Shown in pieces: positions 7,515 to 43,655 of a stretch of 64,000 bases of DNA (positions within the stretch are counted from its first letter, which is position 1; every line of letters begins with the position of its first letter). The notes under the pieces were generated by a model that saw nothing but the letters and a program-made list of their open reading frames with translations, was not told the origin of the DNA and made no database searches. Position numbers and translations under genes: made by a program. The stretch comes from Eledone cirrhosa (lineage: Eukaryota), in assembly GCA_964016885.1 (NCBI GenBank), contig OZ024752.1, forward strand, positions 23,436,001-23,500,000, in the 5' to 3' direction.

Positions 7515-7548
7515 GTGGTCTTTCCCATCTTTTCCACTCCTTTTCAAC

Positions 7549-10961: not shown

Positions 10962-11204
10962 ATTAAAGGTGGAAAACTGGGAGAGGGCACTTACCCTGGT
11001 GGTCAGGGCCACTGTGGTCTTTTAATGGGCTTTCTCCACAAATGTCCCTTGGAAGTCTCCCCCCTATTGGGGAATTTTTCTTTGTTATTTTATTTCAACC
11101 TCTGTTTTTTTACACGCAGAAATGCCCATTTGTACCGTCCTGTATTGTCCTGTACTGTCCTTAATGTCTACTTTATGTGAACCCTTGTGGTTAATAAAGA
11201 AAAC

Positions 11205-15233: not shown

Positions 15234-15288
<55 letters not shown>
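15234..15288. repeat. (TTA)n target/tail tract
   Basis: Pure tta run between the A 5' end and the B 3' end. Confidence 0.95.
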
Positions 15289-15289
<1 letters not shown>

Positions 15290-15432
15290 AGTTGTATTTA
15301 TCTTGCTTTATGTTCATACGAGTTATCACCAAGTCACAACCAGTGACCTCAAGAGACAACAAGGTCCGCCATGTTCAAGAAAGAACATACATATTCACAC
15401 ATGCATCTTTAGTGTTTAGACTTGTGATGTAC

Positions 15433-18400
15433 TTATATTGACAGAATCTTCCTTAGTATATGGGCAGTTCCCATTAGTACTATCTTTTGTATTTCTCCTA
15501 TACGCGGGTTTCCTGGGATTTGCGATAAGTAATCATTAGACCCCTTAGGTATCATTCCCAGAGCGCCTACAACCACTGGTATTGTTTTAGTTCTCAATTT
15601 CCACATTTTTCCAATTTCTATCTCCAGGTCCTTATACTTGCTCAATTTTTCAAATGTTTTTATAGATACATTCTTGTCTATTGGAACAGACATATCAATT
15701 AGCATGCATACCCTCTTTTGAAAGTCTTTCAATATTATATCAGGTCTGTTTGCATCTATTTTTCGGTCTGTTTGGATGCTAAAGTTCCACAAGATTGAGA
15801 TGTGATCTTTTTCAAGTATGGGAGGTGGTTGATGCTCCCACCAATTCTTTTGATGGGGCAGGTCAAAATGCTTACACATTATCCAATGTATGTATTGTGC
15901 AGCTCTGTCATGCCTGTTTAGGTATTCGGTTGGAGCTATAGGACTGCACATTGAAATTATATGGTCAATTGTCTCTGGTTGTTTTTTGCATACACGGCAT
16001 AATGGGCTGCATCCATTTTTTATGATGTTGGCTTGGTAATTTTTTGTTGGCAGACACTGATCTTGTGCTGATATAATCAGTCCTTCAGTCTCCGATTTCA
16101 GTCCAGAGGATGCCAACCACTGATGGGTTAAAGTTTTGTCAAGATCAGGATAGTTAGCTCGCTCTGGGTATTTTCCATACAGAGGCTTTTCTTGCCATTT
16201 CTTAGCCAGTTTCTGTAGCAGTTCTTTCTTTGCAGTTACTTTTACCTGCTTTGCTTTTTCTGTGTTTTGCATTTCAGCAGTAAATGGGACTTCTGAAATT
16301 TGTAGTCCATTACTGTATCTTTGTGCATCTTTTGTAATGGAATATGATCTTTTGATGCTTTCGTGTTTCAAAACGAGTTTGATCATCCAATCATGTGATT
16401 CCCTTAGATATGTAGATAATCCAATTGTTGCAGTTTTCAACGCAATGTCTAACTGGATTAACCCACGTCCTCTTTCTTTCCTAGGGAGATATATTCTATC
16501 TATATCTGCCTTTGGGTGATGCATTCTATGCATGGTTAAGAATTTTCGAATTTTTGTATCGAGCCTACGGATCTCTGTGCTTGACCAGTTGATGACATTG
16601 TAACTGTAGGTTACTACTGGTATGGCAAGCGTGTTTATGGCATCGATCCTATTCCTTGCATTCAATTCCGTTCTTAAGATTGCCCTTACTCTGCGGTAAC
16701 ATTCCTTCCTTATCCTTTCCCTCATTGTCGAGTGCTTGATTCCGTCTCCTTCACAAACACCTAGATATTTGTAAGTTTTTTCTTGATCAAGTTCTCTTAT
16801 CACGTTCCCCCGATCAAGATTAATGTCTGAACTCTTCAGCAGCTTTCCTCTGGTGAACGTTGCTTTGGCGCATTTATCTAGTCCAAACTCTATTTTAATG
16901 TCATCACTGAACTGCTCCACAGTGGATAATAGCCCTTGCAATTGTTCATCATTTTTTGCAAATAGTTTCAGGTCATCCATGTAGAACAAGTGATTAATGG
17001 TTTTGTCATAGACTTTATATCCATGTTTTGTTTCATTGAGCATTTTACTTAATGGTATAAGCGCGATGCAGAATAAAAGCGGTGATAAAGAGTCACCCTG
17101 AAAAATTCCACAATTAATATTAACTTCTCCAGCTTCCAGTGATTTTGTTTCACTATTCAAAAGGAGTGTCGTTTTCCATGTCTTCATACTGAATGACAAA
17201 AACCTCCTGACAACGGGGGATATTTTGAAAATCTCTAAACATTTTTCAATCCAACTGTGGCAAACTATCGAATGCTTTTTTATAATCTATCCAAGCAATC
17301 GATAGATTTTTGTGTCTATTATGACAATCTTCCAGTATCATTTTGTTAACCAGAAGCTGATCCTTACAGCCATATGAGCCTCGTTTACACCCTTTCTGCT
17401 CAATGGGAAATAGGTCATTTGTTATCAGTTGGTCATATGTGTATTCAGTTAGGACTGATGTTAAAATTTTATACATTGTGGTCAAGCAAGTTATCGGTCT
17501 GTAATTTTTGGGATTGTTTGTCTCATCATTCTTCGGAAGCAGGAATGTAATGCCGTTAACTAGCCATGAAGGTATCTTTTCTGGCTCCTTAACTATTTCA
17601 TTGTAAAGTTGGGCTAACAGCTCATGAGACTCCGTGAAGGCATTTATCCAAAAGTTTTGTATTTTGTCTTTTCCTGGGGATTTCCATTTGCTTGTTTTTC
17701 TTAGAGCCAAGCGCAACTGTTCAACTGTTATATTTTCCCATATTTGTTCCTCAAGGTGAGCTGTATCTTTCATTTGTCTGTCTATCCATGGGGCATGTAT
17801 GTTATGAACTTTTTCTTCGGCCCAGATCTTTTCCCAGAATTCTTGCACTTCCTCCTTGGGTGGTATTGATTTAGCAGTTATTGTTGACTTACCAATTTTT
17901 CTGTAGAAGTTTCTTTGGTTGTTTTTGAACATATTATTGTCCTTATAGAATCTAGATCGTTTTTCAAAGCGCCTTACACGAGCATCTTTGGCCGACACTT
18001 TTTGCTTGATTATTTCTATCAGCATGTCTATGTCACATGTTGATTTTATACTGTACTTTTTTTCAATTTTCTAAGTTTAGTTTGTTTAACATGTTCACCT
18101 ACTTTATAGTTTGTTAAAATTTCTATGTCAGATCGGAGAAGGTTTATTTGGCGATTGATGTTCTCTTGCCAAGTAGATTTCTTGTGGGAATTCCTTTGTT
18201 TTTTCATCTTCACTCCACATAAGTGAGTGGTGACTTTAGCCGATGCATAATAGAGATGATTTAAATCAGTAATGTTTAGATTGTTTGTGATGATAATGTT
18301 TTTGAGAATTATGTTAGTCTTGTGTATTATCTTTTGGTTCTGTTTGGAGTTCTGGATCTTAGGGAGGGTGTCTCGTTGCCCCATGTCAGATTCTTTCATT

Positions 18401-19080
18401 TTCATCCATTCGATCATAATTTCATCCTTCAAGTTGGCAAGTTCATTCTCATTCATTTCTTTATCATTTACGATCTCATTATTTTCATTTGGAGTTTCAT
18501 CCTGAGCATGCACTCCCTCCCCTTTTTCGATCCTTTCTTTAATTTGTTCTGTTGCCAGTGATTCCGCCCCAACCCTGGGATTCGAAGTGTTACAATTTAC
18601 CTCGTTTTCACTGACACATGTTTCATTTTCCCTTCGCTGACTTTGTGCTAATAGCTTGATCTGATCAATTTCTATATCAGTTAGTAACTTGTTTCTTACA
18701 ATATTTCTTCGTATATTGGCTAGTTTGTTACTGTCAATATAGCCTATGTTTTCGGGATGTTTCTTTTTCCAGTTGATATATGTCTGTTCTGTATTCGATG
18801 TATTTGATGGGTAGTACATGGCAGTGTAGAAAGCCTCAAAGACTTCTTTATTATCTTCCCATGACCATTTTTCTCTCTTTTTCTTTGGATTTCTTGGTGG
18901 TGAGCATGGAGGGCTAACAGTAGGAGTATTCCGGTTATGAGAGGTCTCCAGCTCCGAAGTGATGGGAAGGTTTGAACCATTAGCTGATTTTTCGACCCCA
19001 GTCTGGTTCCTCTCTGAGGGACGCGGCCCTTTTTTACCCGGGTGACGGCCGATCCGGTATGAGATTTTATCATTAGACAT
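15433..19080 (-). pseudogene. Family B RT-REL ORF (~1215 codons) with two frameshifts
   Basis: Three consecutive ORFs (18046..19080, 17246..18025, 15433..17199). Breaks at a homopolymer near 18060 and a 2-nt deletion near 17258 (ccaactgtggc versus ccaactgtctggc in the 3261..5284 copy). Confidence 0.88.
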
Positions 19081-19320
19081 TTACTTTATTTTGTCGCGTT
19101 TTATCCTTATCCACCAAAGGGTAATCATTTCGTGTTACCACTTCTAGAACGAGTGTCAACCAAGACTAGAGGGGTCGTTCTCCCCTAGAGACACGGCTAT
19201 TCCCCGCCGGCCGCCATCCCGGTATTTCTTGGTCACGGGGTTTTCTTTTTTGTTGTTTTTTTAAATTGTTATTATCATGAGTGGTTCCTTAATGTGAGCA
19301 TTGCGTGGCTTAAGAATGAA

Positions 19321-19377
19321 ATTATTAATAATTGTCTCCACTCCAGGCACAAGGCCAGCATTTACCCAGTGCATTAC
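19321..19377 (-). mobile_element. SINE 3'-tail remnant inside the family B upstream region
   Basis: Reverse complement gtaatgcactgggtaaatgctggccttgtgcctggagtggagacaattatt matches the SINE tail. Confidence 0.75.
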
Positions 19378-20326
19378 AATAATATAATATACTTTTTGCT
19401 GAAGTTGCCTGTTATTGTTGTTGGATATGTCGGTGGTGGTGCTGGTTTTTTTTATATTGTTGGTGAGGAAGGGGGGAGCCAGCAGTGCCATAGTTGTTGA
19501 CGTTTGGCCGGTGGCCAGGTCACTAAGTCAATCTATTTATATCTTTTGCTAGCCTCTCCCTTGTCTAGTGATACCGCCACGTTTCCCTTTCTTAAGTTAA
19601 AAGAAGGTAATGGGGAATAGTGGTGGTAGCAATGAAGGAGTGGTGGCGGCGGTGATGGGATAGTGGTAGCAATGATGGATGGAGTGGTGGCGGCGGTGGC
19701 GTTGTCGTTACTGAGTTTTGTTGAATGGACTAGTTTTTTGATATGTAGTATCTATGCGTTTGTGTCGCGTATGTTTAATATATGTGTTGAATAGACTAGT
19801 TTTGTTTGATCTGTAGTATCTATGCGTTTGTTTCGCTTATGTTTAATATATATTGTGTTGACATATTCCCTTAATATTGGAATTAAAGATTTTGTTAAAA
19901 CTTGAAACAATAATAATTGTAATTATTATTATGATGCTGGGATTGGTGGTGGTGGTGGGGGTGAAATTGCCGTTATCTGGCTGTTATATTTAGTGTACAC
20001 AGCGGAGTGATGGGGTAGGTGGTGTATCAAGTTTCTGGTGTTGGTGAAATTGCTGTTATTTGGCTGTTCTATATAGTGTAGACAGAGGGTTTTTTTTTCC
20101 ATTTATAACCATTTCTTTTTTGAATATAAAATATATTATACAAAATTGAATATTTGAGCGATATAACAATATATTATGGATCCGAAATTTTATGAGACTT
20201 GATTCGGTGATTTATGCATCATTTGTACTAAGAATTGTTATTTCACAATTGATTTAAATATGTTAAAAATCAAAAACTTACGGGAGCGATTTCATGACCT
20301 TCTACCACCACGTGCGTCTTCTTCCC

Positions 20327-20454
<128 letters not shown>

Positions 20455-23400
20455 CCTTGAATCTCAGTCATTGATGTTGGTTAACTGGAAAGTCCGTTGG
20501 AATGAATATCAAGCCACTACCTGCAGCCTCAGATATTCAGGACGTATCGGAGGGTTCTTGCTGTTCCAAGCAAGCATGCCTTTTGAAGCGTTCCAAAAAG
20601 CGTGAAGGGGCCGATTTTCTTTAACCATCCCTGGAAACTGTTGGAGATAGTCCCCAGTGCGCCTATGACAATCGGGATCACTTTGACTTCATGGCAGTTC
20701 CAAATCCTTTTCACCTCCCACTTTAGGTCCTGGTATCGGTTAATTTTCTCCCTCTCCTTCTCTTGCACTCTCGTGTCGAACGGGCAGGCCACATCCACAA
20801 TCAGACACGATCTTTTTTCTTTGTCCACAACCACCAGGTCAGGTCTATTGTGTTCCAGTTTTTTGTCCGTCTGTATCCTAAAATCCCACAGCACCTTCAC
20901 CTGATTGTTCTCCATCACCGCCTCCGGCCTATGCTCATACCATTTCTCAGAATGTGGTAAATTGTTTACTTTGCACAGGTGCCAGTGGATCACCCTGCCC
21001 ATCACATCGTGTCTCCAGCCCTTATAGTGGGTCTGGGCTAGGTGTTTACACTCGGACACAATGTGAGCCACAGTCTCCTCTCTCTCTCCACAGATCCTAC
21101 ACAGTGGGCTAGCCTCCTCCTTGTAAATATGGTGCTTCAACCACTTCGTTTTGAGGGCCTGCTCCTGCGCAGCCATTATCATTCCTTCTGTAGCCTTTTT
21201 GAGGTCTCCTCTTCTCAACCAGTTCCATGTCTGTGGATCTCTAAATTCAGTTTTCTCAAAGAAGGTACTATGAAGGGATTTTCCCTTAAGGCTGCTCTTC
21301 CTCCTTGATGTTATTTCCTCCTTGGACATCCCCTGGCCTACTGTCCCCTCCTTCAGTACAGTTTTGAGCATTGGCTCCTTACTATAGGTCACGTATTTGT
21401 ATAGGTTGTTTTTCTCCACCTGAACACAGTCCTCTATGCTGATAAGACCTCTTCCACCCTCAGATCTCCTTAGGTAGAGTCTATCGACATCACTCCTCTT
21501 GTGGAACATGTTGTAGATAGTCAATAGCTTCCTAGTCTTCCTATCCATTTCTTTTTGTTCAGCAACATTCCATCTCAGAATTCCCGCACTGTACCTAATA
21601 ATAGACACAGCTCGGGAATTTACTGCGCTTATGGCATTTCTGCTGTTCAGATGGGACTTCAATACGCTTCTTACTCTCCGAATGTATTCAGTTCTTAACA
21701 ATTCCTTCATTTTTTTGTTCTTTATGCCATCAGCCTCCAGAACGCCCAAATACTTGTATCCTTCCTCAGAGTCAATTTCCTTTTTCATCTCACCTGTTGG
21801 TATCTGGATCCCGCTACTTCTGTTCAACCTACCCCTCCTCATCACAATGACTCCACATTTACCAATACCAAACTGCATACATATATCACTGCTGAATATA
21901 CGGACAGTGTCAACAAGCACATCCAACTCCTTCTCGCTTTTCCTGAAGAGCTTAAGATCGTCCATGAAGAGGAGGTGATTGATGGTAAGCTCTCCCCTTC
22001 CCAACTTGTATCCTGCTCTCACTTTTCGCAGCATAATGGTCAAGGGCATTAGGGCAAGGACAAACAACAGAGGGGACAGGCTATCTCCCTGGAAGATACC
22101 TCTCTTGATCTTCACGCTTCCCAAGGATACTCCAGTTGATGTCAACTCTGTCTCCCAGGACCCCATACTCCTGCCCAGCAACTGTCTGATGTTATCTGCC
22201 ACCCTGAAGATCTCCAGGCTTTTGGTGATCCAAGAATGAGACACTATGTCAAATGCCTTTCTGTAGTCTATCCATCCCATGGCAAGATCAGTGTGTCTCC
22301 TCCTGCAATTCCCCATTACCATCTTATCAATAAGTAACTGGTCCTTTGTACCACGTGACTTCTTTCGGCATCCTTTCTGTTCGTCCGGTAACAAGTTGTT
22401 TGTGTGGAGGTGATGGTAGATTTCCTCAGACACAATGCTCGTCAACAGTTTCCACATTACGGACAGACATGTGATAGGTCTATAGTTGGTAACATCATTA
22501 CCCTTGATTCGGTCTTTCATTATCAGAACTGTGGTACCTTTTGTCAACCACTCTGGCACCTCACCCGACACCAAGCAGTCATTGAACATGGCCGTCAGCT
22601 TCGGGTGGACGGATGTTAAATGTTTAATCCAATACCCCTGCACACCATCTGGGCCTGGTGATTTCCAGTTGGTTAGTTTTTTGGCCTGCCCCTTAAGAGT
22701 TTCAACTGTGATACTCAAATCAGTTTGTTGTTGTGCCTGCTCACCGATCTCCCTCTGTACTGTCTCAATCCACCCTGCCTGGGCATTATGTCTAACATCC
22801 TGCTCCCATATTCATCTCCAGAATGTTTTAGTTTGTTCCGCCCCAGGGATCAAGTCGTTGCCTCTTTCTTTCCCCTCAAGCTGTCCAAACAGCATCTTCT
22901 GGTTGTTGTCGAACATGCGGTTCTGTTTATACTGACTGACTCTGTTCTCGTATCGCCTGATTTTTGCACTCTTTGCTACAATGCGTTGCTTCAATTCCTC
23001 TATGATAATATTTAGCTTTTTCCTCCTAGTTTTGTATTTTATTTCCAGTCTATTTTTAGTGCCTATGTTTTTTAGTGTCCCATTCAGTAGTGACTCAAGC
23101 TTTCCTATGTCATTTCTCATTTCCCCGATTTGCCCACTCAGTCGCTTCTTCCACCACGGCTCTGCTCTTTCTTGTCTGTTGTTTCCTCTCGCTTTTATAC
23201 CAAGTAGTTTCCTCACCGTATTTGCTGTTGCTTTGAGGATATTGTTGCACTGGTGAAGGCTCCTCGCCTCAAGGTATGGGATGACTTTGTTTACCTTAGC
23301 TGTTGTTTCTTTTAACTTTTTCCTGTCTACAAATCTTAGGTTCATAGGTCTCCCACTATCATTGTTCAATTCATCTACCACTAAATTTAGGATGTCAACC

Positions 23401-23701
23401 GAATCTTGTCCTAGCCCGTCAGCATTCATCTCCTCAGTGGCCGTATCTCTGTTCCAGGTATTATTTATCTCAGTATTCAGATCATTGTCTGCTTCGGGTG
23501 GTTCCTCCGTTCTCAGGATCTCTTCACCTTCATTTCCCACTGGCTCGCTTGTCTGGCATACTACACCCGCCATCTCCAAGCCATTCTCTCTGCTCAGTTC
23601 CTCCAGTTCCAGCTCGCTTATCCACCCATTAGTTCTTATTACCCGAGCCTGCCCGGCCAATTTTTGTTCATCTAATTTAAATAAACCAATCTCGTTCCAG
23701 A

Positions 23702-23707
<6 letters not shown>
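20455..23707 (-). mobile_element. Family A copy, 5'-truncated, with nonsense mutation
   Basis: ORF split into 22812..23660 and 20529..22718 by GGA>TGA at 22812-22814. Similarity to the full copy ends at ccagatgttat. Confidence 0.92.

Positions 23708-23732
<25 letters not shown>
23708..23732. repeat. (TTA)n target tract
   Basis: Direct reading of the sequence. Confidence 0.93.
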
Positions 23733-23943
23733 GACGAAAGTGGATGTACGTTTTTTGAAGCTCCGTGAGTAAGCAATTTTTGAGGATTAATTGTAGAGAA
23801 TTGTTTATTTTTTGTACCGCTGAAGCATTATAAGACATTAATTTGTATCCTGTGAAGGAATAACTCATAATATTTGGGCCTTTTGGCCCAAATATTTGAA
23901 CTTTATTTTGAAAAAAAAATAATAATTTTTTTCTCAAAAAAAC

Positions 23944-25854
23944 ATGGCGGAGCCACGCCCCCTAGAGGCGGGTCTGCTGTCGTGCAACGGCGACTTGAGC
24001 GTTGAGAGGAGAGGTGAGGCGAGGAGCGCCACCAGCACGAATGTGAGCAGCGACAGTGCCAGCACCAACGGGCCGAGCGGCGCGGAAGGTGGTAACAGCG
24101 ACAACACCAACACCAACAAGCCGAACAGCGCAGAAGGTGGTAATAGCGAGAGCACCAACAAAACGAACAGCACAGAGAGTAATAGTAGCGACAGCAGCAG
24201 CACCAACAAGGTCAACAGCACAGAAGGTAACCACGACACAGGGGAGAACAACAACAGCAATAGCAGCAGCAACACCAACAAGAACAACAACAGTGACAAC
24301 ATCAACAAGAACACTTTCGCTGCTGTGGCAGCGGCTAAAAGGAGACCATGCTACAGCATCGACTTAACCAACAGAGAGGAAAAGTTGGCCCAGGCCTGGA
24401 AAATCATAAATCAAGAGCAGACCTGGGCAAACTTAACTGTCCCGGCAGAAGCCATTGAGGCAGTGGAAAAAAGAACGGTGCATTTCAGATGCATCTCAGT
24501 AGAGACAAAGAGGGCAGCGATAATCGCCCAAGCTGACATAGAAGCCGCACTGAAATACATCAGAGAGGACACAGACTTCATAGAGAGGGGCAGGCAATAC
24601 GGCACCGTTTCGGTGCTGTTCAAGTCTGAAGCCCTCGCTGTGAAGCATTCAATGACCCCTTGCAAAACCAGCAAGGTCATAATGTACCCCTCCCACATGG
24701 GAAAACGAATAGCACGTGTGCGCATTCCCAGGATTCCACCAGGACTTGATATGTGGTGGCTCCTGGGTTGCGTAATCGTGGAAGGAACGGATACAGTCCC
24801 GGTAGAGGCAACGAGAACTGCCAGGGACGACTGGTCCGGGGTTGATCTGGAGATACTGCTCCAAATCAGACCCGAAAACGTAAAAACAATCCCGGACCAC
24901 ATCCGCCTCCAAAACGGGAGGGTGTTGCATATAATGACTGAGGGCAAAAGGCCGCATTGTTTCCTTTGTGGGGAAACGACACACTTGCGAGCCTTCTGCC
25001 CTCAACTGCCGAAAAGCGCAAGGGGTCGAAAGATTCCACTGCTGGCGACGCCGGGACAAGGACCACCAGCAACACCGTCAACAATGGAACCACCAAAATT
25101 GCACACCCAGGGGGGAAACGAGGAAAGCTCTCCCATTCCCCCTCCCCCCCAAAATACACACACGAACAAGAACATAAACACTCACTCAGACACAAACACG
25201 CTCACAGCCACAGACCCCTCATCCTCCAGCAGTGAAGATGAGGGAAAACCAAAGTCCCCCAAAATACAAAAAACAAAACACAAAAAAAAAAGAAATCCAC
25301 AAAGCACAAACACCCCCACAAAAAAAAATACACACACCACCCACACAAACATTTTCCCCACAGCATCACCAACACAACCACCAAAATCCCCCAAACGCAA
25401 ACAAGCTAAACAGACACAAGAACAAATAGACACACAAACATCAGAAACTACAGACACCCCACCCACAACAAACGCAGACACAATAGAAACAACACTAACA
25501 AAGCTATCACCACCACAATCACACGAACAAATAAAACCCGAGCAACAAAACATTAAAAACTTCGTGCTTGCCAGAAGGGCCAACAAGGAATTGATGGCCC
25601 ATGTAGCACGAAGCACAAACATCGAAAAAGACGGGGAAACATTTGAAGCGAGCACATTTCGCGTACCAGATAATTTGCTTCTGATGCGAATGTCGCTCGC
25701 TTCATACAAAGAAATTCGAAAGAGCTTTCCTCGGGATGTGGGAACCCCGAACGTAAAACCCACGTCAAGACTATTAAAGGGGTTCCCAAAAGAAACCCCA
25801 CAAACCATGGAGGTCGAACCACCCGACCTTCACAAGACCCCGGAAGGTAAGTAA
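23944..25854 (+). CDS. Tx1-b ORF1 protein (636 aa; CCHC zinc knuckle, low-complexity N/S- and T/P-rich tracts)
   Basis: CFLCGETTHLRAFC knuckle. Homologous to Tx1-a ORF1 (RGxxYGTV, WSG, EG(K/R)RP). Confidence 0.88.
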   Translation: MAEPRPLEAGLLSCNGDLSVERRGEARSATSTNVSSDSASTNGPSGAEGGNSDNTNTNKPNSAEGGNSESTNKTNSTESNSSDSSSTNKVNSTEGNHDTGENNNSNSSSNTNKNNNSDNINKNTFAAVAAAKRRPCYSIDLTNREEKLAQAWKIINQEQTWANLTVPAEAIEAVEKRTVHFRCISVETKRAAIIAQADIEAALKYIREDTDFIERGRQYGTVSVLFKSEALAVKHSMTPCKTSKVIMYPSHMGKRIARVRIPRIPPGLDMWWLLGCVIVEGTDTVPVEATRTARDDWSGVDLEILLQIRPENVKTIPDHIRLQNGRVLHIMTEGKRPHCFLCGETTHLRAFCPQLPKSARGRKIPLLATPGQGPPATPSTMEPPKLHTQGGNEESSPIPPPPQNTHTNKNINTHSDTNTLTATDPSSSSSEDEGKPKSPKIQKTKHKKKRNPQSTNTPTKKNTHTTHTNIFPTASPTQPPKSPKRKQAKQTQEQIDTQTSETTDTPPTTNADTIETTLTKLSPPQSHEQIKPEQQNIKNFVLARRANKELMAHVARSTNIEKDGETFEASTFRVPDNLLLMRMSLASYKEIRKSFPRDVGTPNVKPTSRLLKGFPKETPQTMEVEPPDLHKTPEGK

Positions 25855-25883
25855 ACCTTTCCTCTCCCATTCATCCTGCCAGC

Positions 25884-28800
25884 ATGGCCATAAGAGTAGG
25901 AAGTTTAAATGTTCGTGGCCTGGGGTCGCCCTGGAAGCAAGGTCACTTGCTCAACGACCTCAGGTCACTAGGAATGGATGTAATTGCCATCAGCGAGACC
26001 AGAATTTCCGACACACGCGCACTGGCGCCGATTTTCGACGATTATCAGATCTTTGCATCTGTTAGTCGGCCGGGAATGGGAGGTGGAGTGGCTGTGCTGT
26101 TTAGGAAATGTCTGGATCTCGAGGTAAGGTCAATCTTCCGGGATCCTGACGGAAAGTTGGTGGTCCTGGACGTGAGCAATAGCGAAGGTGGTGCCTTTAG
26201 ACTGGTGGCCGTCTACGCCCCTACTGGGGCCGGTCGGCCGGACTTCTTTAGGCGCCTGGAAAACTTTCTGCTTACGTCTCGCCCTTTACTGTTAATAGGG
26301 GATTGGAATGGCATCTTAGAAGCACGCTGGGATTGTGTGGGAGTATCTGATAGGAGCGGGGGGTGCAAAAGCCTCAAGTACCTGATCAGCCAGTTTCAAC
26401 TGTCTGACAGGTACCGACTAGATTTCCCTAATGCGCCAGTATGGACCTGGACCAATCGCATAGGGTCATCTAGATCGTACATAGATAGGATTTTCATTAG
26501 GAAAAGAGATAGAAATAGTGTAGGATGTCCACATTTTAAAACGGTTGCCTATTCAGATCACAAGCTTGTGATCTGTATGGTCGACCTAGATAAGACACGT
26601 AGGTTAGGACCTAGCTACTGGAAGCTAAACATGTCGTTTCCGGCACGTAAAGCTTACAGGGACCGGGTCAACAACTTAGTTAAGCAAAAGTTGACAGGGG
26701 GGGTTGTCAACAACAGGTGGTGGGGGGCACTCAAAAGAGAGATTAGAGCAACCTCGATAGGATTTAGCAAAGAAGTAGCAATAGAGAAAAATAGAAAGGA
26801 GGAGGGGCTGATAGCTAAGTTAGACGAGGCTATTTGTAGTGGCATTGCAACAGACGTGCTAGCGGCGAGAATGGCACTAGACCATTTCTTCAATGCGAAA
26901 CACGAAGGTTGCATTGTCAGAGCTAAGGCGCGTGCTCTGAGGAACGAGGGAAGCAAAGCTGCCCGATGGGCTCGCTTTGCAGAGACGCAGCGTGGAAATA
27001 AAACCACAATTCGGTCTTTGACGGATCGAGATGGACACGAACTGAGCGATTCCAAGCAGATGTGTGAGGCCTTTCGCCAGCACTTTGCTCGATTGTTCGG
27101 GAGGATGGGTGAGTCGGAGACGGCGGCGGACTTCAGTCCCTACCTCGACGGCTTGCCACGCCTCTCGACGGCCGACGCTGAGCGCTGCGAAGAGCCGATA
27201 ACATCAGCCGAAATTCAGGACGCCCTTGTCGGCTGCTCGAGTCGCAAGTCACCCGGTTTGGATGGTCTGCCCTACGAGCTTTACGTAAATATGCCAGACT
27301 TGTTCTCCGATCTCCTCGAAGCGCTCTACTGCAACTGGCAGCAGAACGGGAGCATTCCCAGTTCTGTGAGCCGTGGCGTAGTGACGCTGATAAGGAAAGA
27401 CGAGAACAAGAGGGACACACTAGATAATTTCAGGCCCATAACCCTGCTCAACACAGAGTTTAAGATTTTGGCCAAGGTGTTAGCGAAAAGGTTGGCGCTT
27501 GTCGTCAAAGATTTGGTTGGGGAGGCGCAAACTTGCGCAATCCCGACCAGGTCCATACACGACAACCTCCACCTCATGCGATACATCATAGAGAGGGTTG
27601 GGTGCAAACCTGGCTTCGGTGGGGCTCTGATCAATTTAGATCAATCGAAAGCATTCGATAGGGTCGACCATCGGTACTTGGAGGCTGTCCTCGAGGCGGC
27701 TGGCTTCGGCCCCGTCTTCAGAAGCTGGATCGCTGCAATGTACAGCGGCATCCGCTCGGTGGTCAAAGTTAATGGCCACCTCTCGGAACCGTTTCAGATC
27801 TCTCGATCGGTCCGTCAAGGGTGCCCTCTCTCCTCACTTCTGTACGTATTGACTCTTGAGCCTCTACTGCGGAAGCTGGAGTTGTTGCAGGGCATCCCGC
27901 TCGAACCGGGACGTAGAAAGGCTGCGTCCGCTTATGCGGACGACATCACCGTGATGGTGTCGGACACCTCGGAAATCGAGGTGATCCGCACCCATTTGGA
28001 GGAATATGAAAGGTTGACGGGAGCAAAACTTAACCCGGAAAAGTCGGTGGGCTTGCAGCTCGGCACCTGGAGAGGCAAGTCCATGCCGTCCAACAGCGTC
28101 GTTGGGCGCTGGACAGACGGACCGGTAAAGTTGCTCGGGGTTTGGTTCGGACCAGACCTCCAGGTGGATAAGAATTGGGACGAGGTGACGAGCAGGATAG
28201 CCAACCTCACCCAGAAATGGGCTGAGAGAAAGCTATCACTGAAAGGGCGGGCGGAGGTGGCGAACGCGTACATCGCGTCCGTCATCTACTACCGCCTGAC
28301 CGTCGTGCCTTGCCCCCGTCCACGCCTCGCCAATTTGGAACGGCTCCTTTTCAAATTTTTGTGGAGGGGACGGGTCCCGTTGGTGAGGCGGTCCATCTGC
28401 TGCCAGCACCCTCTTCGTGGAGGGCTGGGCATGCCGTGGCTAATGATGCGCAGACATGCGCTGAGGCTGCGACATCTCCAGATATTTTGCCTAAACGGTG
28501 AACAGGTGTGGTCGCCGTTTGTTAGACGGGCCTTTCCGCAGCTCATCTCTTTGACTGAGCTGCAGTCCTGGGTCAAGAAGAGACCGAGACTGGGCGACTG
28601 GCATCTGGAATGTTGCCAGGCGCTCACTGCACTCTGCAAGGTGGGCAATGCGGTCAGTGGAACTTCCACTCAAGATTTCTATAGAGGATTAGTGGAGGGC
28701 AAGTGCGATGACGTACTAGGAGAGGCTCTGGGCGTCAACGAAGTAGAACTGACCAGTATGTTCCGGAGGACTTTCGAGCCGGGGACGATGGATAACTTCC

Positions 28801-29303
28801 AGAAATCCCTCGCTTGGCAGTGCTACCGGGGGGCGCTGCCGGTTCGGGATAAACTCTACAGGCACGGAAGTGCTGTCAGACGAACCTGCCCGAGATGCGC
28901 GCAGAGCGACGAAACCGTTCTGCACGCACTCGTCCAGTGTCCGTGCATTGCTGACTTGTGGGGTTATGTCGAACAGCTATTGTCGCGTGTAGAACGGATC
29001 CGGCTATCGTCCGAGTCCATAGTGAAGATTGACCCGCCGCCTTCTTTTGGTCAGGAAGGGCAGGCAATTTTCCTCTGCCTGGTGGCAGTAGCGAAAGAGG
29101 TTGCATGGTGGACCAGGTTGAAAGGACTGAAGACAGACACTTTTCTCTTCGGCCAATCCCTCATCAACTTCTTCAAGTTTCACTTGGAAAGGAAGGTGAG
29201 GGTGGAGAGAGAAGTGCTGCCCCCCAGTACATTTACTGAAAGGTGGGTGAATGTGGCGAGAATGGCCCGCGTGAGTGGGCCTACTCTGATCATGCGCCTG
29301 TAG
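25884..29303 (+). CDS. Tx1-b ORF2 protein (1139 aa; APE endonuclease, reverse transcriptase, C-terminal CCHC)
   Basis: APE motifs NVRG, SETR, YAP, GDWN, IDR, SDH; YWKLN; RT motifs KSPGLDG, FRPITLLN, DQSKAFD, RQGCPLS, YADD; CPRCAQSDETVLHALVQC. Confidence 0.94.
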   Translation: MAIRVGSLNVRGLGSPWKQGHLLNDLRSLGMDVIAISETRISDTRALAPIFDDYQIFASVSRPGMGGGVAVLFRKCLDLEVRSIFRDPDGKLVVLDVSNSEGGAFRLVAVYAPTGAGRPDFFRRLENFLLTSRPLLLIGDWNGILEARWDCVGVSDRSGGCKSLKYLISQFQLSDRYRLDFPNAPVWTWTNRIGSSRSYIDRIFIRKRDRNSVGCPHFKTVAYSDHKLVICMVDLDKTRRLGPSYWKLNMSFPARKAYRDRVNNLVKQKLTGGVVNNRWWGALKREIRATSIGFSKEVAIEKNRKEEGLIAKLDEAICSGIATDVLAARMALDHFFNAKHEGCIVRAKARALRNEGSKAARWARFAETQRGNKTTIRSLTDRDGHELSDSKQMCEAFRQHFARLFGRMGESETAADFSPYLDGLPRLSTADAERCEEPITSAEIQDALVGCSSRKSPGLDGLPYELYVNMPDLFSDLLEALYCNWQQNGSIPSSVSRGVVTLIRKDENKRDTLDNFRPITLLNTEFKILAKVLAKRLALVVKDLVGEAQTCAIPTRSIHDNLHLMRYIIERVGCKPGFGGALINLDQSKAFDRVDHRYLEAVLEAAGFGPVFRSWIAAMYSGIRSVVKVNGHLSEPFQISRSVRQGCPLSSLLYVLTLEPLLRKLELLQGIPLEPGRRKAASAYADDITVMVSDTSEIEVIRTHLEEYERLTGAKLNPEKSVGLQLGTWRGKSMPSNSVVGRWTDGPVKLLGVWFGPDLQVDKNWDEVTSRIANLTQKWAERKLSLKGRAEVANAYIASVIYYRLTVVPCPRPRLANLERLLFKFLWRGRVPLVRRSICCQHPLRGGLGMPWLMMRRHALRLRHLQIFCLNGEQVWSPFVRRAFPQLISLTELQSWVKKRPRLGDWHLECCQALTALCKVGNAVSGTSTQDFYRGLVEGKCDDVLGEALGVNEVELTSMFRRTFEPGTMDNFQKSLAWQCYRGALPVRDKLYRHGSAVRRTCPRCAQSDETVLHALVQCPCIADLWGYVEQLLSRVERIRLSSESIVKIDPPPSFGQEGQAIFLCLVAVAKEVAWWTRLKGLKTDTFLFGQSLINFFKFHLERKVRVEREVLPPSTFTERWVNVARMARVSGPTLIMRL

Positions 29304-29554
29304 GCTGGTGAATTCGAGAAGGAGAGGGGTGCCCTTCCCGGGTGCCCTAGGAGCGTCGGGTGGCTCAGGACTGGTGGGGTGCTTGAGTCAACCCTGGGTG
29401 GTGATCCCTCTTATTGGGGAACTTTCATTGTTGTATTTTTATTGTTATTTTGTTTTTTTGTTATTTATACTTACTCGATCTCTATGTAAACCCCCACTGT
29501 CCCTGTCTATTGTGTTGTCCCCTATATGTCGGCCCTTGTGGCCAATAAATGAAA

Positions 29555-29556
<2 letters not shown>

Positions 29557-29604
<48 letters not shown>

Positions 29605-29619
29605 GTTGTTGTTGTTATT
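29557..29619. repeat. (TTA)n tract shared by the Tx1-b tail and a family A tail
   Basis: Direct reading of the sequence. Confidence 0.95.
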
Positions 29620-32600
29620 CCTTGAATCTCAGTCATTGATGTTGGTTAACTGGAAAGTCCGTTGGATTGAATATCAAGCCACTACCTGCAGCCTCAGATA
29701 TTCAGGACGTATCGGAGGGTTCTTGCTGTTCCAAGCAAGCATGCCTTTTGAAGCGTTCCAAAAAGCGTGAAGGGGCCGATTTTCTTTAACCATCCCTGGA
29801 AACTTTTGGAGATAGTCCCCAGTGCGCCTATGACAATCGGGATCACTTTGACTTCATGGCAGTTCCAAATCCTTTTCACCTCCCACTTTAGGTCCTGGTA
29901 TCGGTTAATTTTCTCCCTCTCCTTCTCTTGCACTCTCGTGTCGAACGGGCAGGCCACATCCACAATCAGGCACGATCTTTTTTCTTTGTCCACAACCACC
30001 AGGTCAGGTCTATTGTGTTCCAGTTTTTTGTCCGTCTGTATCCTAAAATCCCACAGCACCTTCACCTGATTGTTCTCCATCACCGCCTCTGGCCTATGCT
30101 CATACCATTTCTCAGAATGTGGTAAATTGTTTACTTTGCACAGGTGCCAGTGGATCACCCTGCCCATCACATCGTGTCTCCAGCCCTTATAGTGGGTCTG
30201 GGCTAGGTGTTTACACTCGGACACAATGTGAGCCACAGTCTCCTCTCTCTCTCCACAGATCCTGCACAGTGGGCTAGCCTCCTCCTTGTAGATATGGTGC
30301 TTCAACCACTTCGTTTTGAGGGCCTGCTCCTGCGCAGCCATTAGCATTCCTTCTGTAGCCTTTTTGAGGTCTCCTCTTCTCAACCAGTTCCATGTCTGTG
30401 GATCTCTAAATTCAGTTTTCTCAAAGAAGGTACTATGAAGGGATTTTCCCTTAAGGCTGCTCTTCCTCCTTGATGTTATTTCCTCCTTGGACATCCCCTG
30501 GCCTACTGTCCCCTCCTTCAGTACAGTTCTGAGCATTGGCTCCTTACTATAGGTCACGTATTTGTATAGGTTGTTTTTCTCCATCTGAACACAGTCCTCT
30601 ATGCTGATAAGACCTCTTCCACCCTCAGATCTCCTTAGGTAGAGTCTATCGATATCACTCCTCTTGTGGAACATGTTGTAGATAGTCAATAGCTTCCTAG
30701 TCTTCCTATCCATTTCTTTTTGTTCAGCAACATTCCATCTCAGAATTCCCGCACTGTACCTGATAATAGACACAGCTCGGGAATTTACTGCGCTTATGGC
30801 ATTTCTGCTGTTCAGATGTGACTTCAATACGCTCCTTACTCTCCGAATGTATTCAGTTCTTAACAATTCCTTCATTTTTTTGTTCTTTATGCCATCAGCC
30901 TCCAGAACGCCCAAATACTTGTATCCTTCCTCAGAGTCAATTTCCTTTATCATCTCACCTGTTGTTATATGGATCCCGTTACTTCTGCTCAACCTACCCC
31001 TCTTCATCACAATGACTCCACATTTACCAATACCAAACTGCATACATATATCACTGCTGAAAATACGGACAGTGTCAACAAGCACATCCAACTCCTTCTC
31101 ACTTTTCCCGAAGAGCTTAAGATCGTCCATGAAGAGGAGGTGATTGATGGTAAGCTCTCCCCTTCCCAACTTGTATCCTGCTCTCACTTTTCGCAGCATA
31201 ATGGTCAAGGGCATCAGGGCAAGGACAAACAACAGAGGGGACAGGCTATCTCCCTGGAAGATACCTCTCTTGATATTCACGCTTCCCAAGGATACTCCAG
31301 TTGATGTCAACTCTGTCTCCCAGGACCCATACCCCTGCCTAGCAACTGTCTGATGTTATCTGCCACCCTGAAGATCTCCAGGCTTTTGGTGATCCAGGAA
31401 TGAGGCACCATGTCAAATGCCTTTCTGTAGTCTATCCATCCCATGGCAAGATCAGTGTGTCTCCTCCTGCAATTCCCCATTACCATCTTATCAATAAGTA
31501 ACTGGTCCTTTGTACCACGTGACTTCTTTCGGCATCCTTTCTGTTCGTCCGGTAACAAGTTGTTTGTGTGGAGGTGATGGTAGATTTCCTCAGACACAAT
31601 GCTCGTCAACAGTTTCCACATTACGGACAGACATGTGATAGGTCTATAGTTGGTAACATCATTACCCTTGATTCGGTCTTTCATTATCAGAACTGTGGTA
31701 CCTTTTGTCAACCACTCTGGCACCTCACCCGACACCAAGCAGTCATTGAACATGGCCGTCAGCTTCGGGTGGAGGGATGTTAAATGTTTAATCCAATACC
31801 CCTGCACACCATCTGGGCCTGGTGATTTCCAGTTGGTTAGTTTTTTGGCCTGCCCCTTAAGAGTTTCAACTGTGATACTCAAATCAGTTTGTTGTTGTGC
31901 CTGCTCACCGATCTCCCTCTGTATTGTCTCAATCCACCCTGCCTGGGCATTGTGTCTAACATCCTGCTCCCATATTCATCTCCAGAATGTTTTAGTTTGT
32001 TCCGCCCCAGGGATCAAGTCGTTGCCTCTTTCTTTCCCCTCAAGCTGTCCAAACAGCATCTTCTGGTTGTTGTCGAACATGCGGTTCTGTTTATACTGAC
32101 TGACTCTGTTCTCGTATCGCCTGATTTTTGCACTCTTTGCTACAATGCGTTGCTTCAATTCCTCTATGATAATATTTAGCTTTTTCCTCCTAGTTTTGTA
32201 TTTTATTTCCAGTCTATTTTTAGTGCCTATGTTTTTTAGTGTCCCATTCAGTAGTGACTCAAGCTTTCCTATGTCATTTCTCATTTCCCCGATTTGCCCA
32301 CTCAGTCGCTTCTTCCACCACGGCTCTGCTCTTTCTTGTCTGTTGTTTCCTCTCGCTTTTATACCAAGTAGTTTCCTCACCGTATTTGCTGTTGCTTTGA
32401 GGATATTGTTGCACTGGTGAAGGCTCCTCGCCTCAAGGTATGGGATGACTTTGTTTACCTTAGCTGTTGTTTCTTTTAACTTTTTCCTGTCTACAAATCT
32501 TAGGTTCATAGGTCTCCCACTATCATTGTTCAATTCATCTACCACTAAATTTAGGATGTCAACCGAATCTTGTCCTAGCCCGTCAGCATTCATCTCCTCA

Positions 32601-32896
32601 GTGGCCGTATCTCTGTTCCAGGTATTATTTATCTCAGTATTCAGATCATTGTCTGCTTCGGGTGGTTCCTCCGTTCTCAGGACCTCTTCACCTTCATTTC
32701 CCACTGGCTCGCTTGTCTGGCATACTACACCCGCCATCTCCAAGCCATTCTCTCTGCTCAGTTCCTCCAGTTCCAGCTCGCTTATCCACCCATTAGTTCT
32801 TATTACCCGAGCCTGCCCGGCCAATTTTTGTTCATCTAATTTAAATAAACCAATCTCGTTCCAGATGTTATGCATCCGTCTCCTGTAGCCCCTCTC
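29620..32896 (-). mobile_element. Family A copy, 5'-truncated, with nonsense mutation and frameshift
   Basis: ORF pieces 31976..32875, 31307..31882 and 29694..31310. Same TGA as the 20455 copy at 31976-31978. 1-nt deletion near 31327. Confidence 0.92.
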
Positions 32897-32898
32897 TA

Positions 32899-32958: not shown

Positions 32959-32961
<3 letters not shown>

Positions 32962-33061
32962 CCTGCCGAGGTTAACTTTGCCTTTCATCCTTATGGGCTC
33001 GATAAAATAAAGTACCAGTAATGTACTGGGTAATTGCTGGCCTTGTGCCTAAAGTAGAAAT
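32959..33061 (+). mobile_element. tRNA-derived SINE, 5'-truncated, inserted in the TTA array in Tx1 orientation
   Basis: gccgaggttaactttgcctttcatcc...taccagtaa...ggccttgtgcctaaagtagaaa followed by a degenerate TTA tract. Confidence 0.88.
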
Positions 33062-37163: not shown

Positions 37164-37880
37164 ACTCCCCACTCCTATTCCTTTAGCCTTCGACCCCCCC
37201 CCTACACACACAAACATCCCCCACTAACACACTCCTCAGTTTCACCACCCCCACCCCTTTGGCCCACCCACAACTAATAATACTAACACACACGTTCGTA
37301 TCCCCACATACACTCACTTAGCCTCCGGACTCAACACGCCCCCTCCCCCACCCCTCTCCATCCAACGCACGCACATACCGACGTACACGCCATGTACACA
37401 CCGGTTTCCCTTTTACCTGAACATGGAACCTCGTTCTTCCCCAACTCTCACATTCACAAATACACACACACACACCTTCACCCATACACAAACACCACCT
37501 TCAGCCCTCCCCGCTCGGACCCCCCCCCCTCTTCACAGCTACCCGCCACCACCCCTACACCCCTCACACTCTTTCACCCCTTGTTTATTTATTTATTTTT
37601 TCTATTATTTGTACTTTTAAAAAATTTCCTTTACTCTCTAAAAATATTGTTTTTCCTCCCTTTTCTCTACCCCCCCTTTTTAAATGTCTTTCCCCACGCC
37701 CCACACACCCCCGGAACTCTTTTCCTGATGAGTTGTCCCCCACACCCCACTCTCAAGCGTGAAACTAAAAACCATATCATTTGTACTCCCTCTCTGTTTT
37801 TTGTTCCCTGTTCATTTATTAAACTATATATATATAGTTATATATATACTGTTATACTGGGGAGAGTCATATTGTTGTAA

Positions 37881-37986
37881 TAGTTGTTTCTACTTTTGGC
37901 ACAAGGCCAGCAATTATCTCAGTGTATTACTGGTACTTTATTTCCTTGACCCCGTAAGGATGAAAGGCAAAGTTAACCTCGGCGGG
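37881..37986 (-). mobile_element. SINE, 5'-truncated
   Basis: Reverse complement of the SINE body and tail. Confidence 0.88.
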
Positions 37987-37987
37987 C

Positions 37988-40040
37988 GTTGTAATAATAT
38001 TGCCAGAAATAATAACAGAACACACTCACTGTTTGGTTGGTTTTCGCTTCTGTATCTCCATAGTTAATTCATTCGGCAATCAATGTTTATCATTGACTGA
38101 CCAACGGTCAAAAATACAGATATAAATACGTATATATAGTCTAACAAAGTTCTTTCTTGCACGTCTGCAACATCATCAGTGGGCCTCCTAGTTAAACTTA
38201 CCTATGACACCGAGTACCTAGACAGCCATGACCTTAGCCGTTTCTGCCCTAGTGGAATCATTAGAGGTAGACGCCCCCACCATAACTTCGACGGCAAAAG
38301 AGACTTCTATGGGAAGGTGGATTGGGTGGACCAAAGCCATAGGGACACCCAAAAATGCTGATCAGGTGAGAAAAATGGTCGCGCATGCAATAGGGGCTAG
38401 TATTAAAATTACCCTAAAGGGCCATATATTCAAATTCAACGAAAAGATCTACACTCCAAATGAGGGAGCAGCCATTGGCGTCAGCCAAGCTGGTGATGTT
38501 GCCAATCTTTTTATGGTATGGTAGGAAAGGAGACTCAAAGACCTCCTTGAAGAGAGCTCCATAGACCTCATCATGTACTCTCGTTACGTAGACGACATTA
38601 ATATAGTAATAAGGACACCCCCACAAGAGAGAGTACTAACAAATATGATTTAGAATGTAGCACAATGGAAAGCATCCAGCAGATAGCCAACTCCATACAC
38701 CAGAGTATAACTGTAACTATTGGCTACTCTTCCAAACACCCTAACAATAGACTACCTGTATTAGACACGGAACTCTGGATTGACACTATAGACGAGAGGG
38801 CCCAAATTCTCCACTCACACTACGCTAAACCCATGGCCTCCAAATACCTGATACTCAAAAACTCAGCAATGTCCAGTAGTGCTAAGTTTAATATTCTGAT
38901 CGTAGACTTGGTACGAGTGATGAAGAACGTGTCCCGCATGTGCGACCCAACAGAAATGGAAAGACACATCCAACACTTCATCAACCGCATGCAGTTCTCT
39001 GGCTACAACCAAAGAGACAGAATCAGAGTATACGAAGGAGCCACGGAGAAGTATAAAACCCTCATAGAACTGGACATGAAAGGAATTTGCCCAAGGACAA
39101 ATCATGGAATAGCTTAGATAGGACTAAACATAAGATAGGGAAAGCCATCTCATGGTACGACAACCAGAGATAACAGAGTGTCATGTTCGTGGACGCTACC
39201 CCTGGAGGGAAATTAGCTAACCAACGTAGAAAGGCCCTGAGAAAGTCCCACCTAAAGATTAAAGTGGTAGAAAAGCCAGGAACTACCATAAAATCCCTGA
39301 TCAGCAAAACATACCCTTTTAAGAAAACCCACTGTACTAATAGGAAATGTGTTATATGTAAAGTAAACCCCCAGACTGTAAAACTAGAAATATAGTCTAT
39401 AGCATAAGATGTACAGAGGGTACTTGCAGAAACATGACAACAATATACATAGGCGAGACAGCTCGAAGCATAGGAGAAAGAATAGACCAACACTAGGGCG
39501 AATTAAAAGGACAAAAAACGTTTTAGTACTATACGAACACGCCAGACAACAACATGATGGTAACATAGACAACATAGAAATTAAAATAATATCTAAACAT
39601 AGAAATGACCCAGCAGATAGGCAAGCGAAATAGAGCTTAGAAATCCAAAGCTAAATAAAAAAAAAAAATGAATGGAATAACAACAACACCTAATCAAACA
39701 ATACTGACTTAAGAGAAATATAAATAAATAAATAAATAAATAAACAGATAAAATAAAAATGGTGTAGACATACAATACAATACAAACAGGAGGAAACATA
39801 ATAGTACCACTGATGATGTTGCACATGTGCAACGAAAGAACTTTATTAGACTATATATATGCATCTATATCTGTATTTTTGACCGTTGGTCAGTCAATAA
39901 TAAACATTTATTGCCGAATGAATTAACTATGGAGATATAAAAGATACAGAAGCGAAAACCAACCAAACAGTGAGTGTATTCTCTTATTATTTCTGGCAAT
40001 ATTATTACAACAATATGACACTTCCCAAGTATAACAATAT
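37988..40040 (+). mobile_element. Degenerate Penelope-like element with inverted pseudo-LTRs (37988..38182 versus 39808..40011)
   Basis: RT remnants (EGAAIG..VANLFM, YSRYVDDI, RLPVLD), linker FVDATPGGKLA..VVEKPG, C..C..C and a GIY-YIG remnant. ~195-bp inverted terminal repeat containing CTGATGA..GAAA. Confidence 0.78.
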
Positions 40041-41671: not shown

Positions 41672-41947
41672 AACACAAAGAAATAACTGTTTCTGCTTTT
41701 GGCACAAGGCCAGCAATTATCTCAGTGTATTACTGGTACTTTATTTTATCGACCCCGTAAGGATGAAAGGCAAAGTTAACCTCGGCGGGATTTGAACTCA
41801 TTACGGCCCTTGCCATTCTGAGTTCAAATCCCGCCGAGGTTAACTTTGCCTTTCATCCTTACGGGGTCGATAAAATAAAGTACCAGTAATACACTGAGAT
41901 AATTGCTGGCCTTGTGCCAAAAGCAGAAACAGTTATTTCTTTGTGTT
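41672..41947. repeat. Perfect 129-bp inverted repeat (head-to-head SINE halves plus flank), 18-nt spacer
   Basis: 41672..41800 is the reverse complement of 41819..41947. Confidence 0.92.
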
Positions 41948-42044: not shown

Positions 42045-42329
42045 TACTATCACCACCATCACCACTACTACCACCCCACCCCACTTCTGCTACTACTACT
42101 ATTACTACTACTGCCACCACCACGACTACTACTACTACTACCCCCACCACCACTACCACAATTACTACCACCTACTACTATTACTACTACTGCCACCACC
42201 ACGACTACTACTACTACTACCCCCACCACCACTACCACAATTACTACCACCTACTACTATTACTACTACAGCCACCACCACGACTACTACTACTACTACC
42301 CCCACCACCACTACCACAATTACTACCAC

Positions 42330-42362
<33 letters not shown>

Positions 42363-42378
42363 GTACCACACCACCACC

Positions 42379-42430
<52 letters not shown>

Positions 42431-42446
42431 GTAGTACCACACCACC

Positions 42447-42483
<37 letters not shown>

Positions 42484-42489
42484 TTATCC

Positions 42490-42564
<75 letters not shown>

Positions 42565-43651: not shown

Positions 43652-43655
<4 letters not shown>

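Follow-up and report, generated by a model that had tools for sequence, protein, structure and literature searches.

When a retrotransposon lies between two runs of the same microsatellite, was the repeat its target, or does part of it come from the element itself? The question is raised by a 64,000-nucleotide stretch of the Eledone cirrhosa genome (GCA_964016885.1, contig OZ024752.1, positions 23,436,001 to 23,500,000; hereafter the window, to which all coordinates refer), in which Tx1-b, a long interspersed nuclear element (LINE) with two open reading frames (ORFs), an apurinic/apyrimidinic endonuclease-like domain (APE) and a reverse transcriptase (RT), is bordered by (ATT)n on both sides. 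A first-pass annotation had taken Tx1-b for a candidate active integrator specific for (ATT)n, with a fixed insertion register that located the nick. The ATT preference of the element is real, and we consider it moderately probable that Tx1-b inserts by target-primed reverse transcription (TPRT) at a short T-ATTA(T/A)T site, in combination with pairing between tail and primer, the (ATT)n runs serving as hot spots.

Junctions of the Tx1 copies and their neighbours

The Tx1 copies of the window and their flanks are as follows.
5308-11204, plus strand: Tx1-a, full-length and broken, with (ATT)7 before it and (ATT)9 after it
23706-23732: 5′ flank of Tx1-b, (ATT)9, which is also the 5′ junction of a truncated minus-strand Dong/R4-like copy
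23733-29556, plus strand: Tx1-b, whole element, a two-ORF APE-RT LINE with both ORFs open
29557-29619: 3′ flank of Tx1-b, (ATT)16 (29557-29604) and then (GTT)n
57814-63108, plus strand: Tx1-c, degenerate and 5′-truncated within ORF1, with TTATTA(TA)23 before it and (ATT)9 after it
63322-64000, minus strand: 3′ end of Tx1-d, cut by the window edge, with (ATT)6 (63304-63321) and then TT(AT)n

As the first-pass annotation had it, with correct coordinates, Tx1-a and Tx1-b begin directly after ATTATT (5308 and 23733) and end directly before it (11204 and 29556), and Tx1-c and Tx1-d also end in (ATT)n, found here as (ATT)9 and (ATT)6. In this 64-kb window, with its four different subfamilies, the target repeat stands in two of three 5′ flanks and in all four 3′ flanks; a family has been called microsatellite-specific when the target repeat occurs in >20% of flanks (PMC4494074). 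ATT-type runs make up 507 of the 21,379 non-Tx1 bases in positions 1-33100 (2.4%), and the chance that two random insertions would both fall in the ATT-type runs of this region is p ~6e-4. TTATTA is found in the 5′ flanks of all three copies concerned (Tx1-a, -b and -c), while AATAAA stands 6-7 nt ahead of the repeat at all four 3′ ends.

Tx1-a is damaged by an in-frame stop near the start of ORF1 and by frameshifts and one stop in ORF2. It shares 77% identity with Tx1-b over ORF2; over 773 codons the identity is 74%, with differences by codon position of 142/106/302, and because of this third-position excess the two copies are best read as separate lineages that evolved under selection, not as duplicates. 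On the 3′ side of Tx1-c, (ATT)9 (63109-63135) is followed by an A/T-only stretch with (AT)6, and the junction holds one extra A (…AAAC-A-ATT, against …C-ATT in Tx1-a, -b and -d). The sequence TTATTATA is present on both sides of Tx1-c, a possible duplication. At 63109-63321, Tx1-c and Tx1-d face each other tail-to-tail over an A/T-only stretch, with a short interspersed nuclear element (SINE) inserted in the Tx1-d tail; together they form a second, smaller nest, free of R4-like elements.

The larger nest, in positions 1-33100, consists of seven minus-strand copies of single-ORF, APE-less RT elements and one short fragment, which sort into families A and B and are separated by (ATT)n runs. We call them Dong/R4-like, a label that rests on their layout and target; Dong belongs to the R4 clade. 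Four copies matter here.
11244-15233, minus strand: family A, full-length, a single open 1130-aa ORF with RT and no APE, tail-to-tail with Tx1-a
15288-20328, minus strand: family B, full-length, ORF broken
20455-23705, minus strand: family A, 5′-truncated, head-to-head with Tx1-b
29620-32898, minus strand: family A, 5′-truncated, tail-to-tail with Tx1-b

Read on their own strand, the Dong/R4-like copies have (AAT)n at 7/7 5′ ends and 7/7 3′ ends (14/14). Tx1-a and Tx1-b thus occupy the same runs on the opposite strand, both head-to-head and tail-to-tail, and the run 29557-29619 is Tx1 tail plus target on one strand; on the other, a Dong/R4-like copy has it as its (AAT)n 3′ flank. The RTs of the two classes share 25-28% identity (Dong/R4-like elements against Tx1-b). 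Comparisons between family A copies over 0.9-3.3 kb show 5-49 nt of difference, and the terminus of the family reads (AAC)1-3 and then (AAT)n. The copy at 11244-15233, with its intact ORF, is a candidate active element; it lies in the tail of the decayed Tx1-a and differs from another copy at 5 of 1988 nt. An intact copy beside a decayed Tx1-a indicates that the R4-like element arrived later at that site, so the length of the run need not show what Tx1 met at insertion. The runs beside Tx1-a and Tx1-b are also targets of younger (AAT)n-targeting elements, which the first-pass annotation had not separated, and the long runs may partly be the work of the Dong/R4-like elements. The two family A copies flanking Tx1-b are truncated <=25 nt apart, share a common variant and have the ORF broken at the same place, while differing at 33/3250 sites; both may descend from a single source copy that was itself truncated or defective.

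A SINE family of about 11 copies in the window has an end resembling the Tx1 3′ end, followed by a short ATTATT in the same polarity.
32959-33060, 37879-37986, 41681-41938, 42661-42833 and 44933-45045: SINE copies, mostly 5′-truncated
49824-50020, 51533-51667 and 63160-63263: further SINE copies, mostly 5′-truncated
52923-53117, with element bounds at about 52938-53115, plus strand: SINE copy with a 12-bp direct repeat at its ends

The region 41672-41947 is a 276-bp inverted duplication, and the SINE pair within it (41681-41938) was dropped before counting for this reason. A 44-nt 3′ piece of a SINE variant (about 19315-19375, minus strand) lies in the 5′ part of the full-length family B copy, again at a TATTATT site. 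An Rfam scan of the window gave no match, either to the SINE or to U2 small nuclear RNA (snRNA).

An end pattern drawn up post hoc occurs at 14 places in the window, namely 4/4 Tx1 ends and 10 SINE ends. The last 30 nt of the SINE match the ends of Tx1-b and Tx1-c so closely that, out of 62,350 background windows, only 21 and 13 respectively do as well, some of these from a SINE piece that had not been excluded, while the match to two R4-like ends is at background level (23,151 and 54,194 of 62,350). The motif T[AG]TTA[AT]T, chosen after looking at the SINE junctions, lies <=40 nt upstream at 6/9 SINE 5′ junctions against 3.1% in the background (p 7e-8), and several copies carry 7-12-bp direct repeats that begin at it; a long (ATT)n lies upstream in only 1/9. 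Tx1 families that move SINEs have a precedent (PMC4494074). We regard Tx1 as the possible partner of this SINE as a lead; the available portions of PMC3747384, PMC4758252 and PMC4824008, like the rest of the literature searched, assign no octopus SINE to a Tx1 partner.

Coding capacity, clade and youth of Tx1-b

Tx1-b is organised as follows, all on the plus strand.
23733-23943: 5′ untranslated region (UTR), 211 nt, T-rich, only loosely resembling that of Tx1-a
23944-25854: ORF1, 636 aa, open, with low-complexity N- and C-terminal parts
25884-29303: ORF2, 1139 aa, open, with APE at aa 7-226, RT at aa 509-753 and YADD at 684
aa 974-1026 of ORF2: C-terminal CCHC/zf-RVT (Pfam)
26445-26477: endonuclease hairpin loop, 9 residues between the equivalents of L1 T192 and S202
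29304-29556: 3′ UTR, 253 nt, T-rich, with AATAAA at 29544-29549 and 7 nt from there to the end
29527-29547: predicted 3′ hairpin with a 5-nt CT(T/C)GT loop

Both ORFs, separated by a spacer of 29 nt, are open with full APE and RT motifs, as the first-pass annotation had claimed and as the ORF calls, Pfam and alignment with human L1 ORF2p agree: ORF2 matches Exo_endo_phos, RVT_1 and zf-RVT above the Pfam cut-offs, and its catalytic motifs align with those of L1 ORF2p with all catalytic residues present. The core of the endonuclease loop, NRIGSSRS, is identical across Tx1-a, -b and -c. ORF1 has no Pfam match, including none to L1 ORF1, and a homologue search with its core found none among 1684 candidates; the core shares 32% identity with Tx1-a ORF1. 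It contains a zinc knuckle, CX2CX4HX4C, at aa 339-352 (nt 24958-24999), present in Tx1-a and Tx1-c too; a CCHC knuckle in ORF1 is a Tx1-clade feature. Two stem pairs of the predicted 3′ hairpin are altered on both sides among the four Tx1 copies. Across these four sequences only, 96% of cells are paired, a value equally high in 18/500 shuffles, and the four Tx1 ends have folding z-scores between -0.6 and -1.7, against 0.0 for two SINE ends. Matches to Kelch-repeat design proteins were set aside as spurious.

The layout, with two ORFs and an ORF2 made up of APE, RT and a C-terminal CCHC, is that of the L1 group, and in a PDB search with ORF2 the best solved structure was human L1 ORF2p (E 2.5e-57), with R2 proteins at E 3e-22 or weaker. 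The protein nearest to Tx1-b stands at 78%, and the next, an unnamed group, at 37-45%. Relatives from metagenomes (80 of 505 confirmed loci kept, from 23/64 parts scanned) serve the tree only: they share <=35% identity with Tx1-b, and all 80 lack an ATT/AAT run, which is uninformative on the target because they are too distant. An Rfam scan of 20 of the 80 found that loci L003 and L005 end in U2 snRNA (4675-4885 and 5815-5977) and L008 in 5S rRNA (5892-6010); L018 and L033 end in (GT)n. A search for relatives in viral contigs yielded 0/91 candidates.

The RT tree called for by the first-pass annotation places Tx1-b with U2- and 5S-flanked (Keno-like) elements and apart from true L1, with support below 95. 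In the FastTree version (152 rows, 426 columns) this group has a support of 0.939 and leaves out plant L1, algal L1 and the fish protein P0072, which behaves as a true L1 (E 4.5e-150 to human L1; a protein from the U2-flanked group scores 2.5e-74). A quick IQ-TREE of 43 of the same rows gave a Shimodaira-Hasegawa-like approximate likelihood ratio (SH-aLRT) of 94 for a comparable group and 88 for Tx1-b as sister to the U2-flanked set; the two trees disagree on P0048/P0055 and relatives. References in these trees were labelled by flanking RNA, not by Repbase name, with no named Tx1 family among the rows. Tx1-b is likely a member of the Tx1 clade.

Parts of Tx1-b occur in 20 sequencing runs, six of which contain half or more of its words. 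In run X1, four contigs of the ORF1 region (201-261 nt) show no difference and one shows a single difference, at a word depth of 1760-2007, while diverged contigs are listed at depth 6-18; depth in X1 is not copy number, and X1 may be the source of the window itself. These data suggest that Tx1-b belongs to a young, multi-copy family of near-identical elements. With its open ORFs and near-identical copies, Tx1-b thus keeps its standing as a candidate active integrator, activity being judged from sequence. In run X6, one 976-nt contig, with 8 other letters and 2 gaps, leads from inside the element across the 5′ junction to the first base of an (ATT)7 flank, and may stem from the same locus.

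Restriction-site-associated DNA (RAD) reads from a different sample, X24, leave the match at two places. A loose start ahead of 29471, within a related 3′ UTR, occurs in 3339 reads, and a loose end past (ATT)7G in 2665, whose consensus runs out in the family A terminus. Since the lengths 24+86+22+19 add up to one 150-nt read, we infer a related subfamily that adjoins family A in tail-to-tail orientation at several loci. The read starts cluster at the GCATGC site at 28429, and family A has GCATGC at 29739, so the sample is biased to the tail-to-tail arrangement; the reads are silent on which element came first.

Target or tail

The 3′ (ATT)n of the Tx1 copies is probably at least partly tail, because the repeats of Tx1-c and Tx1-d run into (AT)n, AATAAA precedes all the ends, and the SINE behaves likewise. 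A 3′ repeat of this kind has its register set by the RNA end and is silent on the nick, and two 5′ junctions would agree in register by chance one time in three; the fixed register is thereby ruled out as a means of locating the nick. The first-pass reading of the 5′ repeat holds in so far as this repeat is not element-derived in Tx1-a and Tx1-b; the same cannot be said of the 3′ (ATT)n, given its probable tail component. The claim of (ATT)n-specific nicking likewise divides, in that a nick at a bottom-strand AAT|A step agrees with what the SINE junctions show, while specificity for the microsatellite as such is weakened because Tx1-c, which has the same loop, follows TTATTA(TA)23, with (TA)23 at 57768-57813 in place of (ATT)n, and the SINE mostly follows a single TATTA-type motif.

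In the mechanism that we propose, the ORF2 endonuclease would nick the bottom strand at the AAT|A step, so that the released ...AATAAT-3′ end could anneal to (AUU)n at the 3′ end of the RNA and prime reverse transcription there; the insertion would end in (ATT)k with no poly(A) and would create a short duplication. Cleavage and polyadenylation of the RNA might take place a small number of AUU units past AAUAAA, or slippage might extend the RNA, and either would make the 3′ (ATT)n partly element-made. As arrays of the short site, (ATT)n runs would be hot spots; Dong/R4-like elements would enter these runs by way of the opposite strand, each class making landing sites for the other until a nest forms, and the same Tx1 machinery would move the SINE with the similar 3′ end. 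The 9-residue, L1-sized loop fits a short, L1-like selectivity, loop length being weak evidence in itself. The preference may be set either by the endonuclease or by the pairing of tail and primer.

Several observations weigh against this mechanism. The window offers only three Tx1 5′ junctions, two of which lie in long (ATT)n; Tx1-c is old, and the (TA)23 beside it may be younger than its insertion; and the X6 contig enters (ATT)7 as strict targeting predicts. The extension to the SINE meets weaker matches to the ends of Tx1-a and Tx1-d (equalled by 164 and 476 of the 62,350 windows), lack of the motif at 3/9 SINE junctions, and a predicted fold of the SINE end that is not the Tx1 hairpin. 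A permutation test for locus-specific target-site duplications of the SINE was not significant (p 0.17; 0.08 and 0.15 under a relaxed junction rule), and an unseen CR1, L2 or RTE element could be its partner.

If the young Tx1-b family were instead strictly (ATT)n-specific, in the manner of Kibi and Koshi, then Tx1-c and Tx1-d would be older relatives with decayed flanks or a different specificity, and another partner would serve the SINE. Microsatellite-targeting families of Tx1 type have been described (PMC4494074), both full-length copies here have long (ATT)n on both sides, the X6 contig reaches at least (ATT)7 across the 5′ junction, and the best 24 of about 7000 loose ends include none on the 5′ side at 23733. 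We nevertheless think strict specificity rather unlikely: Tx1-c shares the loop core and has no 5′ (ATT)n, the tails of Tx1-c and Tx1-d pass into (AT)n, the loop is L1-sized and not Tx1L-sized, and both long 5′ runs double as R4-like junctions and could have been lengthened thereby.

The opposite simplification, a loose L1-like taste for A/T with an (ATT)n tail, would have later R4-like insertions expand tails and target duplications until they mimic specificity. It is in keeping with the intact family A copy in the tail of the decayed Tx1-a, where R4 came later, and with the (AT)n adjoining Tx1-c and Tx1-d, and it predicts the tail-to-tail junction of the RAD reads equally well, a junction that is enriched by the restriction site at 29739. 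We hold it to be improbable in view of the TTATTA in all three Tx1 5′ flanks, the motif in 6/9 SINE 5′ flanks against its background, and the fact that an R4-like insertion at a Tx1 5′ end requires an ATT run already there. Misassembly or tandem duplication across microsatellites, which would make the junctions non-independent, might be suspected from the matching truncation and ORF break of the family A copies flanking Tx1-b. Those copies differ at 33/3250 sites, like other copy pairs, Tx1-a and Tx1-b are 23% diverged with a third-position excess, and the Tx1-(ATT)n-family A junction recurs in raw reads of another sample, so that we give such an artefact very little credence.

Elsewhere in the window lie other decayed mobile-element ORFs, of which 46085-47656 and 38665-39117 are presumably Penelope-like, 54624-55187 RTE-like and 50591-51019 DNA-transposase-like. 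There is also a 262-bp direct repeat at 99% (43652-43913 and 44072-44333) beside (TA)n runs, and a degenerate (CTA)n array of 475 bp (42090-42564).

Significance and comparison with known systems

Site-preferring Tx1 elements with many targets are known, and one more would not surprise specialists; if our reading is true, the ATT site would be a new target for a known type of site-preferring retrotransposon. The usefulness of the locus lies in an intact, apparently young copy that combines an L1-sized loop, ATT sites and an unrelated endonuclease class on the other strand. The mechanisms by which APE elements target microsatellites are poorly understood (PMC3812793), and Tx1-b permits a direct test of whether the endonuclease or the pairing of RNA tail and primer chooses the site. 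A partner would also be named for an abundant SINE, and a source for (ATT)n microsatellites. More tentatively, and with rather more doubt than confidence, one may picture an APE-type Tx1 lineage that converged on the Dong/R4 microsatellite from the opposite strand, with both classes lengthening each other's targets into nests and the Tx1 machinery driving a major SINE and seeding (ATT)n genome-wide; Tx1-b would then be an active source copy and a candidate for a compact, programmable-site integrase.

In Octopus vulgaris, recent activity is reported for 13 L1-Tx1 families, accounting for 421 recent insertions, and for five Dong-R4 families (PMC13282606), in the available text without target analysis. 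Their likeness to Tx1-b is by description, and the repeat make-up of the window has a cephalopod-like look; the available text of PMC9115989 makes no mention of Tx1. Dong, DongAg and DongBg have their target listed as TAA (PMC3812793), the same microsatellite in the opposite strand polarity, and the R4 clade has a single ORF with a restriction-like endonuclease (PMC4640811), in contrast to the two ORFs and APE of Tx1-b.

The model of a nick at a T|A step followed by pairing of primer and tail is borrowed from L1, whose endonuclease nicks TTTT/AA with loose, structure-based selectivity (PMC1950540). The human L1 endonuclease loop has 9 residues, as in Tx1-b, whereas that of the stringent Tx1L and TRAS1 has 11 (PMC1950540). 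Tx1-b differs from human L1 in lacking a poly(A) tail and in an ORF1 with a zinc knuckle and no Pfam L1 ORF1 match. Closer in the trees are elements resembling Keno, a Tx1-clade APE element followed by U2 snRNA (PMC4640811, PMC4494074): the Keno-like L003 and L005 are among the best full-length metagenome matches and are sister to Tx1-b in the quick tree, with 28-29% identity over ORF2 and another target, U2 genes.

Known Tx1 targets comprise Tx1D, U2, U5, 5S, (TC)n, (TTC)n, (TTCC)n/(TTTC)n, satellites and several transposons (PMC4494074). An ATT- or AAT-targeting Tx1 was not found in the literature searched, which covered the available portions of these papers and lay apart from Repbase and from the target figure and supplements of PMC4494074. 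The nearest parallels are Kibi in (TC)n, Koshi in (TTC)n and the crocodilian Tx1 in (TTCC)n/(TTTC)n (PMC4494074, PMC3812793), which like Tx1-b are Tx1-type APE-RT LINEs in microsatellites. The targets of these families are pyrimidine-rich, while the site of Tx1-b is ATT/TTATT, a comparison by description and not by sequence, and the Tx1 flanks here are (ATT)n or TTATTA(TA)n, with none of (TC)n, (TTC)n, (TTCC)n or (TTTC)n. Unlike Kibi and Koshi, Tx1-b has a 3′ repeat that is probably in part its own tail, and a preference that looks shorter than the repeat in which it sits.

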